Below are positions 52,014 to 53,621 of a stretch of 64,000 nt of DNA, one piece after another; within the stretch, counting starts at the first letter, position 1; each line of letters begins with the position of its first letter. The translations under genes were made by a program, and so were the position numbers. Origin of the DNA: a virus (Duplodnaviria; Heunggongvirae; Uroviricota; Caudoviricetes); the IMG/VR virus record IMGVR_UViG_2529292828_000009, one strand, 5' to 3'. Under the pieces are notes generated by a model. The model ran no database searches and had not been told where the DNA came from. It worked only from the letters and a program-made list of their open reading frames with translations.

Positions 52014-52418
52014 ATGGAAGATATAAAAAACAAAGAAGACATTTCACCATCTACAGAAGTCAGGCTCTTCACCCCCACCATGAAAAAAACTTCTAAAGTG
52101 CATCCCAACGAGCGGAGATTACACTGTGTCAGTGTCCGATTAAATAAAAAAGAGTTAGAGAAGATTGAAGAACTCAGGGGTCGTTACCGTAGGGGAGAAT
52201 GGCTGCGTATGGTGTCGTTAAGCAAACTTCCTCCATTGATCCCAGAGATAAACAAGGATGTCTGGATCATGTTGGGGGAAATATCGCAGAAACTTAATCG
52301 TCTGATAGTACATCTGGATTCTAAAACCAGTGACAGCCCTCTGACTAAGACAGAAGCTTATGCAGTCAAAAAACAACTTCATGAGCTTCGTTTAAGCCTG
52401 ATAACTTCTCGTCCATAA
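52014..52418 (+). CDS. MobC-like relaxosome accessory protein
   Basis: 134 aa basic protein immediately upstream of the relaxase; RRLHCVSVRLNKKELEKIEELR. Confidence 0.5.
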   Translation: MEDIKNKEDISPSTEVRLFTPTMKKTSKVHPNERRLHCVSVRLNKKELEKIEELRGRYRRGEWLRMVSLSKLPPLIPEINKDVWIMLGEISQKLNRLIVHLDSKTSDSPLTKTEAYAVKKQLHELRLSLITSRP

Positions 52419-52430
52419 AAATTTCTAATT

Positions 52431-53621
52431 ATGAAAGGAATGCAGAAGATCAAGAGGGGTAAGAGCTTCGCTGGTGTTGTTCAATATGCATTGAAACCTG
52501 GAGCACATCATAAATGCGATCCAGTCGTAATCGGGGGCAATATGCTTGGATATTCAGCCCTTGAACTGATTGCTGAATTTGATAGCAGCAAACAACTTCG
52601 CCCTGATGTTCAGAAGGCCGTTTGGCACAACTCGCTTCGCTTACCTGATGGTGAATCACTATCGAATGACCAATGGGTAAACATAGCTGACGAATACATG
52701 AAAATGATGGGGTTCAGTGATACCCATCTCCGTTGCTATGTGCTTCATGACGATCCGGCTGGTCAGCACATACACCTTATTGCAAGTCGCATAGATCTTA
52801 ATGGAGGAAAGCTGTACTTGGGTAGGAATGAAAATCTCATCAGTACCCGGATTATTAGTGAACTTGAAATCGCTCATAACCTGATAGTTACCAAGACAGC
52901 TCCTGTGATTGCACCACAGCAACCGAAGCGGAAAAAAATCTCTCGCAATGAACAGATGCTATCGGCTCGGACTGGTGTTCCCTCCCCTAAGGAAGCTCTC
53001 CAACATATCATTGATAAAAGTTTGGCAGATAAGCCCGACCTTCTAACTTTTGTTCAGCGGCTGGAAGAAGCAGAAGTATCCTGGAAGGCCAATATTGCTT
53101 CTACCGGCAAGATGAATGGCTTTTCATTCTCTTACTGCGATATAGCTTTCAAAGCTTCGCAATTGGGCAAGGGTTACTCTTGGGCAAATCTTCAAAAGCA
53201 ACTTAACTACAACCCTAGCCACTTAGAAGCTATACGAACCAACACACCGACAAAAGACCACCCTGCTCCTGCTCCTGCTCCTGCTCCTGCTCCTGCTCCT
53301 GCTCCTGCTCCTGCTCCTGCTCCTGCTCCTGCAACAGTTTTGAAAATCACTGAGAGAAAGGAAAGTCTCGGTGGAAAAATTACAGAACTGGAATTACGGC
53401 TCAGAGAAGACAAACGTAAAGAAATCGTAGAAAAGATTCTTCTAAAGAATGCAGTCAAACAGCAAAAGCATCTCAGGCTCAGTAGCTGGTTCCCCTTTTT
53501 ACAACGGCTCATAGAGCTTCTCAGAAAATATGGAAAGAGCATCCTCCACAAGGTTCCTACAAACTTCTCAGAAGTCTATTCAACACATCATCTGAAACCT
53601 ACAAGAAAAATTCGTTTATAG
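52431..53621 (+). CDS. Relaxase / mobilisation nuclease with an internal (Pro-Ala)12 linker
   Basis: N-terminal KIKRGKSFAGVVQYALK and histidine triad HDDPAGQHIHLI. Confidence 0.75.
   Translation: MKGMQKIKRGKSFAGVVQYALKPGAHHKCDPVVIGGNMLGYSALELIAEFDSSKQLRPDVQKAVWHNSLRLPDGESLSNDQWVNIADEYMKMMGFSDTHLRCYVLHDDPAGQHIHLIASRIDLNGGKLYLGRNENLISTRIISELEIAHNLIVTKTAPVIAPQQPKRKKISRNEQMLSARTGVPSPKEALQHIIDKSLADKPDLLTFVQRLEEAEVSWKANIASTGKMNGFSFSYCDIAFKASQLGKGYSWANLQKQLNYNPSHLEAIRTNTPTKDHPAPAPAPAPAPAPAPAPAPAPAPATVLKITERKESLGGKITELELRLREDKRKEIVEKILLKNAVKQQKHLRLSSWFPFLQRLIELLRKYGKSILHKVPTNFSEVYSTHHLKPTRKIRL
53262..53333 (+). repeat. In-frame hexanucleotide microsatellite (CCTGCT)11 + CCTGCA encoding (PA)12
   Basis: Counted directly at 53262-53333. 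Confidence 0.95.

Follow-up and report, generated by a model that had tools for sequence, protein, structure and literature searches.

The two genes considered here lie side by side at positions 52014 to 53621 of a 64,000-nucleotide stretch of DNA (the window in what follows) filed as the virus record IMGVR_UViG_2529292828_000009 of IMG/VR, within an island inserted at the tRNA-Leu gene leuX. The host is Escherichia coli: several chromosomes of this species match window 20001-32750 (fimD to nanM) at 100% identity. The first gene (52014-52418, plus strand) ends 12 nt upstream of the second, on the same strand, and encodes a protein of 134 residues, a relaxosome accessory protein of the ribbon-helix-helix type and a remote homologue of IncQ2 MobC and NikA. 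The second (52431-53621) encodes a MOBP-type relaxase of 396 residues (Pfam PF03432, E = 4.7e-23), which can be divided into a core (residues 1-263), a variable segment (264-277), twelve consecutive Pro-Ala pairs (278-301), a predicted C-terminal helical domain (about 313-374) and a basic tail. The best-supported description of the locus is that a hypervariable Pro-Ala/Pro-Val spacer, an unusual and well-documented property, is found in what is otherwise an ordinary helper-dependent mobilisation module.

The Pro-Ala run is encoded by a hexanucleotide array (53262-53333, plus strand) in which 11 perfect CCTGCT units (53262-53327 by regular-expression count) are followed by a single CCTGCA (53328-53333), all in the frame of the relaxase gene. 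Tandem Repeats Finder reported one array at 53262-53332, with a period of 6, 11.8 copies, 100% matches and a score of 142, which is by far the strongest repeat within the window. An array of such purity and length cannot be chance. An earlier sequence-only reading of this stretch had described the same units and the same (PA)12 translation, and the repeat finder, the direct count and the reading frame all agree with it. It had also proposed that the array, being prone to slippage and always in frame, would let the linker vary in length between isolates, and it had advised a comparison of copy number across relatives. That comparison gave copy numbers that are not identical but range from 3 to 35 units.

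Length differences are seen between alleles that are otherwise nearly the same. The flanks of UTME-14, UTME-9, LD91-1 and UTME-12 differ by 0-1 mismatches over 1,805 nt, yet the arrays count 5, 11, 14 and 19 units, respectively. A Logan contig with 99.8% identity across the mob genes, and with a relaxase identical at 377 of 378 positions outside the array, has 3 units as against the 12 found here. The 3-unit array is unlikely to be a long array collapsed during assembly, since its 18 bases are fewer than the k-mer of such assemblies, which we take to be about 31. Complete E. coli genomes carry 6, 8, 11, 12, 13, 24 or 35 units. When one genome per species is compared at the same codon position, the arrays are pure within each genome and the unit differs between clades: CCTGCT (3-24 copies, Pro-Ala) is found in several genera, CCTGTT (14 copies, Pro-Val) in locus L006, GTCCCT (5 copies, Val-Pro) in L003, CCAGCA (11 copies, Pro-Ala) in the Rahnella locus L007, and GTGCCA (3-13 copies, Val-Pro) in a clade whose proteins are about 50% identical. 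Every array examined keeps the reading frame, and on/off switching by the array was not encountered, the unit being 6 nt long and the frame always kept. The repeat is a hypervariable trait of the family as a whole.

The linker differs in length in 139 of 189 database protein pairs that are at least 98% identical on both sides of it, a count inflated by the clustering of the database. Several clonal sets have the same match length (AH04/AH02/CT01, H5/H6 and SEC470/H10407), and the array is therefore fast-changing but not unstable on the shortest timescales. The public proteins among the top 120 homologues, most of them from short-read assemblies, have mainly 3-8 units, against as many as 35 in complete genomes; evidently short-read assemblies break at the array or are limited by it, which biases public protein sets toward short arrays. 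One database protein (P0216, 288 residues) ends inside the Pro-Ala run. A literature search found no variable repeat inside a relaxase, although subscription journals were outside its scope and the absence is not proof. A sub-threshold Rfam match on the repeat ("Afu_254") was set aside as a low-complexity artefact. An antisense open reading frame (ORF) over the array (53207-53551, minus strand, 114 residues, TTG start) reads (AG)n through the repeat, which is stop-free in any frame and leaves all three antisense frames open. The open stretch outside the repeat varies from 41 to 121 codons among relatives and the sense frame is under purifying selection, so that we reject this ORF as a gene and regard it, like the sequence-only reading, as an artefact of the stop-free repeat.

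The identity of the relaxase rests on a match to the whole of the PF03432 model (1-132 of 132) by residues 19-151, at 82.4 bits against a cut-off of 24.6. Tyr19, His106, Asp107/108, His113 and His115 are invariant among 30 close homologues, in the motif His106-Asp-Asp-x4-His113-x-His115. Among 39 relatives at 28-60% identity His115 still does not vary, conservation of Tyr19 and His106 is 90% or higher, and the motif has the consensus HDDxxGQHIHI; the N-terminal nuclease signature and histidine triad seen in the first reading are thus genuine. A phmmer search of 1.8 billion representative proteins returned 3,555 relatives that align to residues 1-263 only and beyond them diverge into C-termini of very different length, and the conserved relaxase core must therefore be about 263 residues long, more than the nuclease domain. 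NCBIfam gave weak sub-threshold matches to TraI_MobP and Bacteroid_MobB, and the TraI/MobA(P) equivalog model NF041893 scored 58.9 bits (4.4e-16) against a cut-off of 250, from which the protein appears to be a distant relative of TraI(P) and not its equivalog. Among plasmid proteins the closest are the relaxase-primase fusions carried by small IncQ2 plasmids, for instance pGNB2, which PLSDB types as MOBP; the core is 41% identical to pGNB2 MobA over residues 6-256.

The accessory protein has no Pfam match below 0.01 and no NCBIfam match at normal thresholds. At E up to 10 its only matches are to RHH_1 (0.098) and NikA-like (0.14; 12.7 bits against a cut-off of 27), and Pfam MobC (PF05713) is not matched even there. 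Among 34 homologues, 21 match NikA-like (PF21983) weakly, the best at 3.6e-4, and none matches MobC. A profile of the family aligned to pGNB2 MobC with hhalign at a probability of 99.2% (E = 3.4e-19, 88 columns, 33% identity), and pGNB2 MobC scores above the Pfam cut-offs of both families, NikA-like and MobC. On this alignment, on the family membership of pGNB2 MobC and on the place of the gene, which stands directly upstream of the relaxase gene in virtually all related loci, we take the product to be a ribbon-helix-helix relaxosome accessory protein. The label "MobC-like" given to it earlier holds for remote homology and position, although not for a direct Pfam MobC match. A structure search with the accessory profile returned only designed coiled coils.

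After the relaxase core come about 14 poorly conserved residues, the Pro-Ala run and then about 95 residues, of which AlphaFold2 (AF2), at low confidence, makes two long helices (313-351 and 354-374) and a basic tail. A motif in this C-terminal part, W-[LI]-x-x-[IL]-P-[FY]-[LI]...L-[KR]..G..[IL]-L-H, is common to all clades, including a third clade in which the repeat is missing and a non-repetitive acidic/Ser-Thr linker of 60-80 residues precedes the same motif. The ratio of non-synonymous to synonymous substitution rates (dN/dS) was calculated against eight relatives. In the core it is 0.10-0.16; in the C-terminal part six of the eight give 0.24-0.39, L042, at very low divergence, gives 0.66, and L007 gives an undefined value. 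Values of the purifying type at both ends imply that the core and the C-terminus are both functional, and the spacer appears to join a conserved core to a conserved helical domain. The linker had been placed between the nuclease domain and the C-terminal region; its C-terminal side is as described, but on the other side it follows the whole core (residues 1-263) and not the nuclease domain directly. The C-terminal domain may meet the coupling protein of a helper or carry a translocation signal, in which case the spacer would set its reach.

The relaxase is also a mosaic. Pairwise identities of the N-terminal core and of the C-terminal 88 residues are almost uncorrelated among homologues P0001-P0120 (r = 0.155), and in 954 pairs the cores are less than 85% identical and the C-termini at least 95% identical. 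We considered whether the repeat could be the joint at which relaxase modules recombine, and rejected this, as mismatch profiles put the breakpoints elsewhere, for example near 53510 or 53870.

The sequence-only reading had suggested a search for an oriT (origin of transfer) nick site near these genes. A strong candidate was found, not adjoining them but 2 kb upstream, where a small non-coding block (about 50389-50477) is conserved amid diverged surroundings in the comparison with related loci. The candidate oriT itself (50406-50481, minus strand, about 75 nt, covariance model score 85.6 bits) consists of a long three-segment hairpin (core AAGCAAGGGCTAAC...CCCCTTG) followed by a second, smaller hairpin. 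In at least 24 loci the core AGCAAGGGCTAAC and the hairpin after it occur once per locus, upstream of the mob genes; in most loci it is 480-590 nt from the element to the relaxase start, and the accessory gene comes directly after the element. The core is found across the Enterobacterales and, in a reduced form, in Pseudomonas, Methylobacter and a Gallionellales genome. Single-strand DNA folds gave the same two-hairpin architecture in all loci folded. A covariance model built from nine sequences has one top match per locus in 24 loci from many genera, the window included. In the resulting alignment, which is fitted to the model and should be read with that caveat, 92.6% of the cells are paired and 8 of 23 pairs have changed on both sides; none of 500 shuffles reached the observed covariation, and slid controls fell to 34-61% paired. 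An Rfam scan of the island region at E up to 1 found no family at this element, and RNAalifold found no structure in a plain MAFFT alignment of it, as the hairpins differ in length.

IncP oriTs have an inverted repeat, about 8 nt and then the nick. By analogy the nick is predicted here on the minus strand, after the G of AGTTAGCCCTTG and before the CTTA that follows, between 50410 and 50409, and the strand that would be transferred is predicted in the same manner; an oligonucleotide spanning the predicted nick region would read AGTTAGCCCTTGCTTAAT. In E. coli AH04 a 1.2-kb gene separates the oriT element from the mob genes and here a toxin-antitoxin pair, DhiT/DhiA, stands between them, so that this position looks like a recurrent insertion slot. 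At 50578-50590 we also noticed TATAGTTCCCCTG, a near-copy of the right arm of the oriT hairpin, TATAGTTCCCCTTG (50440-50454), 138 nt downstream of it; this could be chance, or the scar of a rearrangement that brought the toxin-antitoxin pair.

The limits of the island are exact. A perfect 25-nt direct repeat, ATGGTGCCGAAGGCCGGACTCGAAC, occurs at 44320-44344 and 63574-63598, with a spacing of 19,254 nt. The proximal copy contains the 3′ end of leuX, a tRNA-Leu gene with anticodon CAA (63575-63659, minus strand; ARAGORN, and Rfam tRNA at 59.4 bits), and the distal copy is the attR-type duplicate of that end. The empty site is preserved in E. coli D6, which matches window 31674-44344 (99.99%) and 63574-64000 (100%); the two aligned blocks overlap by exactly the 25-nt repeat. 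The repeats and the empty site together mark a precise insertion of 19,254 bp, and the island is a discrete and recent arrival. Scans with Pfam and PADLOC detected no type IV secretion or coupling-protein families (VirB4, VirD4, TraG) among its ORFs, and the HerA-like ATPase at 41138-42859 is part of a SIR2-HerA defence pair in the neighbouring island. Having an integrase and a relaxase of its own and lacking type IV secretion genes, the island would be classed under the usual definition as an integrative mobilisable element (IME), one that carries defence cargo. The suggestion in the sequence-only reading that it is probably such an element is well borne out by the leuX insertion, the direct repeat, the D6 empty site, the P4-type integrase and the lack of secretion and coupling-protein genes. 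Relatives of the relaxase gene were found in 142 of 5,426 complete E. coli genomes, all of them chromosomal, and the PLSDB plasmids contain no DNA-level match to the mob genes. A single "plasmid" match at 65% identity proved to be a 3.6-kb linear contig in a draft-like assembly and is poor evidence for a plasmid copy.

We therefore read the region as the mobilisation module of the leuX element, made up of the candidate oriT, an accessory protein of the MobC/NikA kind and a MOBP relaxase with a slippage-driven spacer that tolerates differences in length, and we put the probability of this reading at roughly three in four. In such a scheme the P4-type integrase, with AlpA, would excise the island as a circle, the accessory protein would bind the inverted repeat of the oriT, and the relaxase would nick one strand through Tyr19 and remain covalently attached to it. 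Export of the relaxase-DNA complex would then fall to a conjugative plasmid in the same cell, through its coupling protein and type IV secretion system, and on such a plasmid the island presumably depends. Our best guess is that the helpers are IncP-like, because the nearest plasmid relatives of the relaxase are IncQ2 MobA proteins. The C-terminal helical domain with its basic tail would be the likely docking or translocation end. Replication slippage would add or remove whole hexamers, keeping the frame and changing nothing but the length of the spacer which, if extended at about 3.1 Å per residue, would span about 2 nm with 3 units, about 7 nm with 12 and about 20 nm with 35. The wide tolerated range and the existence of a repeat-free clade suggest that length is loosely constrained; most likely, the variation is largely a mutational by-product and not a switch.

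Several observations weigh against this interpretation. There is no helper within the window, and the sequence does not allow one to be named. Neither blastn nor the covariance model linked the candidate oriT to a plasmid oriT; the element lies 1.5 kb from the mob promoter owing to the DhiT/DhiA insertion, and its nick has been placed solely by analogy with IncP-type oriTs. The AF2 models are poor (predicted local distance difference test scores, pLDDT, of 49 and 60), so that the picture of the domains comes from secondary structure and conservation. Finally, clades no more than about 50% identical still carry a pure array at a single codon position, which neutrality does not obviously predict.

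This last point leads to the strongest alternative, in which spacer length is tuned by selection. The microsatellite would then be a "length dial" with steps of two residues, selected to track changing helpers or to trade transfer rate against cost, an idea to which we give little weight. It would amount to a contingency locus without an on/off switch, the length of the spacer fitting the reach of the C-terminal domain to the coupling protein of the helper; this seems to us improbable, as does the corollary that populations of the island always contain variants matched to an arriving helper or differing in transfer rate. Copy number does outpace point substitution, as the near-identical alleles with 5, 11, 14 and 19 units (0-1 mismatches in 1.8 kb) illustrate, and linker length differs in most of the nearly identical protein pairs, subject to the clustering bias of that count. 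The C-terminal domain is under purifying selection, and two clades with about 50% identity share the position of a pure Pro-X array but write it in different codons, which suggests that the repeat state has been retained. However, in the related clade without a repeat the same C-terminal motif is preceded by a long linker that is not repetitive, and the Val-Pro clade includes members with only 0-3 units, as if length were loosely constrained; clonal genome pairs often share one length.

The relaxase and oriT might instead serve mainly to replicate the excised circle by the rolling-circle mode, or be part of the nested GInt-type element described below, with export secondary or absent; we think this very improbable. 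In other systems excised elements are known to have their replication driven by a relaxase, and Pfam found no replicase among the island ORFs. The nearest plasmid relatives are, however, IncQ2 mobilisation proteins, and a role in replication would not exclude transfer. With respect to ownership, the mob genes lie downstream of a ginD-like gene, where the cargo of GInts begins, and the transfer of GInts is left unexplained (PMC5385486), but the mob block is found with the same backbone and without the gin operon in other loci, for example L016. It is equally hard to credit that the module is a relic of a former plasmid or conjugative element that has lost transfer and whose repeat simply drifts, for although the oriT-like element is cut off from the mob genes by the toxin-antitoxin pair and no helper lies within the window, both the accessory and the relaxase ORFs are intact, dN/dS remains low (0.10-0.16 in the core, 0.24-0.39 at the C-terminus), the catalytic residues are conserved, the oriT element has been kept with compensatory changes, all arrays examined are in frame and the insertion of the island is recent and precise.

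If the module is indeed a mobilisation module, it is expected to work like the MobC-MobA system of IncQ2 plasmids (pGNB2 / pTF-FC2 type, MOBP) and, more distantly, like TraJ-TraI of IncP. The order of oriT, accessory gene and relaxase gene is the same as in IncQ2, the relaxase cores are related at the 41% identity given above, and upstream of pGNB2 mobC, by about 95 nt, there is a similar motif (GGAGCAAGGTGTAACC-hairpin-TGGTT, of the form AGCAAGG..TAAC-hairpin), which the covariance model does not score. In contrast, the pGNB2 relaxase is a primase fusion of 814 residues without a Pro-Ala array, whereas the island relaxase ends in a 95-residue helical C-terminus behind the repeat spacer; the IncQ2 module is carried on a plasmid and that of the island on the chromosome. 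With the TraJ-TraI system of the IncP plasmid RP4 the island relaxase has in common a similar context of the N-terminal Tyr and the H-x-D...H-x-H motif. The oriT architecture is also alike, an inverted repeat being followed after about 8 nt by a conserved nick-like sequence. The island element nevertheless lacks the ATCCTG nick core of RP4, and its relaxase is much smaller.

Relaxase-bearing islands are common according to large surveys, and two groups of them, the PIMEs and the EARL/ROD21-like islands (ICEKp258.2), resemble the present one in being chromosomal and in having a tyrosine integrase and AlpA. PIMEs carry large defence cargo (bioRxiv 10.64898/2026.01.12.698999), and both PIMEs and EARL islands depend on helper conjugative elements (bioRxiv 10.64898/2026.01.12.698999; PMC10763509). 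PIMEs are defined by the co-occurrence of integrase, alpA, replicase, trbJ and trbL (Perta et al. 2026, bioRxiv 10.64898/2026.01.12.698999); our island has the integrase and AlpA, but the replicase, TrbJ and TrbL families were not found among its ORFs, and we do not count it as a PIME. EARL islands have a MOBQ relaxase, TraD and a tRNA-Asn site, and end with AlpA and a DUF6387 gene (PMC10763509). The AlpA-DUF6387 end is common to the island described here, but its small MOBP relaxase and tRNA-Leu site exclude it from that group. Neither the PIME nor the EARL paper mentions a repeat in the relaxase (bioRxiv 10.64898/2026.01.12.698999; PMC10763509). GInt islands are defined by an operon at their 5′ end, ginABCD, made up of genes for three tyrosine recombinases and a fourth, small gene (PMC5385486). 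The leuX island contains an operon that we liken to ginABCD by its described layout: two of its products are clear tyrosine recombinases, the third, a large one, is a degenerate recombinase, and the fourth gene is small. Unlike a GInt operon, it lies inside an island with its own P4-type integrase and direct repeats and is dispensable for the backbone.

Alternating Pro-Ala runs are known as extended spacers between domains, and the same alternating sequence is seen in the Ala-Pro arm of the myosin essential light chain, in TonB and in the lipoyl-domain linkers of 2-oxoacid dehydrogenases. When the relaxase was searched against the sequences of solved structures in the PDB, the sole "matches" were low-complexity ones to the Pro-Ala run, namely the (AP)n arm of the myosin light chain and the linker of dihydrolipoyl succinyltransferase. 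Those spacers are fixed within a species, whereas the spacer of the island relaxase is a pure microsatellite that varies between near-identical strains.

A large part of the anti-phage defences of E. coli resides on helper-dependent islands of this sort, whose movement is often obscure. With a transfer module, a likely oriT and exact island limits defined, the mobilisation of this one is directly testable. The natural series of spacers, from 3 to 35 Pro-Ala units, could show how the C-terminal domain of a relaxase meets the coupling protein. The array evolves fast enough to serve as a tracing marker for this island family, and it is also a trap for short-read assemblies. Our understanding of the mechanism of conjugation is unchanged unless spacer length matters; were the length-dial idea true, it would describe a contingency locus that modifies a conjugation protein but leaves it switched on, which as far as our searches reached is undescribed for relaxases.

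The remainder of the island consists of defence cargo on one side of the mob genes and a conserved backbone on the other. From the distal repeat inward, the cargo includes the Kiwa genes KwaA (44671-45279, plus strand, PADLOC 9.4e-77) and KwaB (45276-46223, plus strand, PADLOC 1.7e-115), an 8xMP membrane protein (46288-46959, minus strand, Pfam 1.3e-39) and a type IIG restriction-methylase (REase_MTase_IIG, 47012-50290, minus strand, PADLOC 2.3e-156). The DhiT/DhiA pair (50900-51671, plus strand) was identified with NCBIfam toxin_DhiT (3.5e-31, above the cut-off) and antitoxin_DhiA (1.3e-38). Upstream of the accessory gene there are two promoter-like sites (51928-51962, plus strand), each matching the sigma-70 consensus at 10 of 12 positions; this is weak evidence, as sigma-70-like sites in the region are no more numerous than in shuffled sequence.

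Downstream of the relaxase gene, backbone synteny picks out genes for a zinc-ribbon membrane protein (53846-54118, plus strand), two small putative lipoproteins (54160-54546 and 54554-54880, plus strand) and a 144-residue protein (54931-55365, minus strand). These four small genes have no informative Pfam match and are syntenic with the relaxase in most of 40 loci, across genera. They are followed by the GInt-type recombinase operon (55453-60224, minus strand; 400, 454 and 624 residues and a 128-residue ginD-like protein), in which the 400- and 454-residue products match Pfam Phage_integrase and the 624- and 128-residue products have no Pfam match. The operon occupies a variable slot of the backbone, empty in the related L016, and is 98-99% identical in the E. 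coli AH04 island at ssrA. Next come a 99-residue protein (60520-60819, minus strand) known from the ORF list, an AlpA-like protein of 68 residues (60841-61047, minus strand), named from the Phage_AlpA match of a 68-residue gene on the near-identical contig L041, a DUF6387 protein (61214-62044, minus strand, Pfam 4.7e-78) and the P4-type integrase (62135-63385, minus strand; Pfam Arm-DNA-bind_3, Phage_int_M and Phage_integrase), which adjoins the tRNA-Leu gene.

In the AH04 island (L042; NZ_CP081706.1, 1224832-1256100) the same backbone, comprising the oriT, the mob genes, the small genes, the recombinase trio, AlpA and DUF6387, is found at ssrA and not at leuX. Its integrase is at the cargo end and not at the DUF6387 end, and its cargo is a helicase-nuclease pair. 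Since both the site and the placement of the integrase differ, the integration module appears to be exchangeable.

Two further elements lie outside the island. Window 32690-44346 is occupied by another leuX island, in tandem with the first. It is a P4-like phage satellite and has primase-helicase, Icd-like, capsid-assembly, polarity-suppression and delta-like genes, an integrase of its own (42898-44169) and the SIR2-HerA defence pair (39843-42859). At 99.99% identity it matches the island that directly adjoins leuX in E. coli D6, from which it follows that the mobilisable island arrived later, between the satellite and the tRNA gene. Window 1-20007 is the end of a Mu-like prophage, 97.7% identical to phage Mu 1-20566 in reverse orientation. 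It meets the E. coli chromosome at about 20001, some 120 nt downstream of the end of fimD (20128-22764) and at the place where fimF is expected, so the type 1 fimbrial operon is probably interrupted by it.

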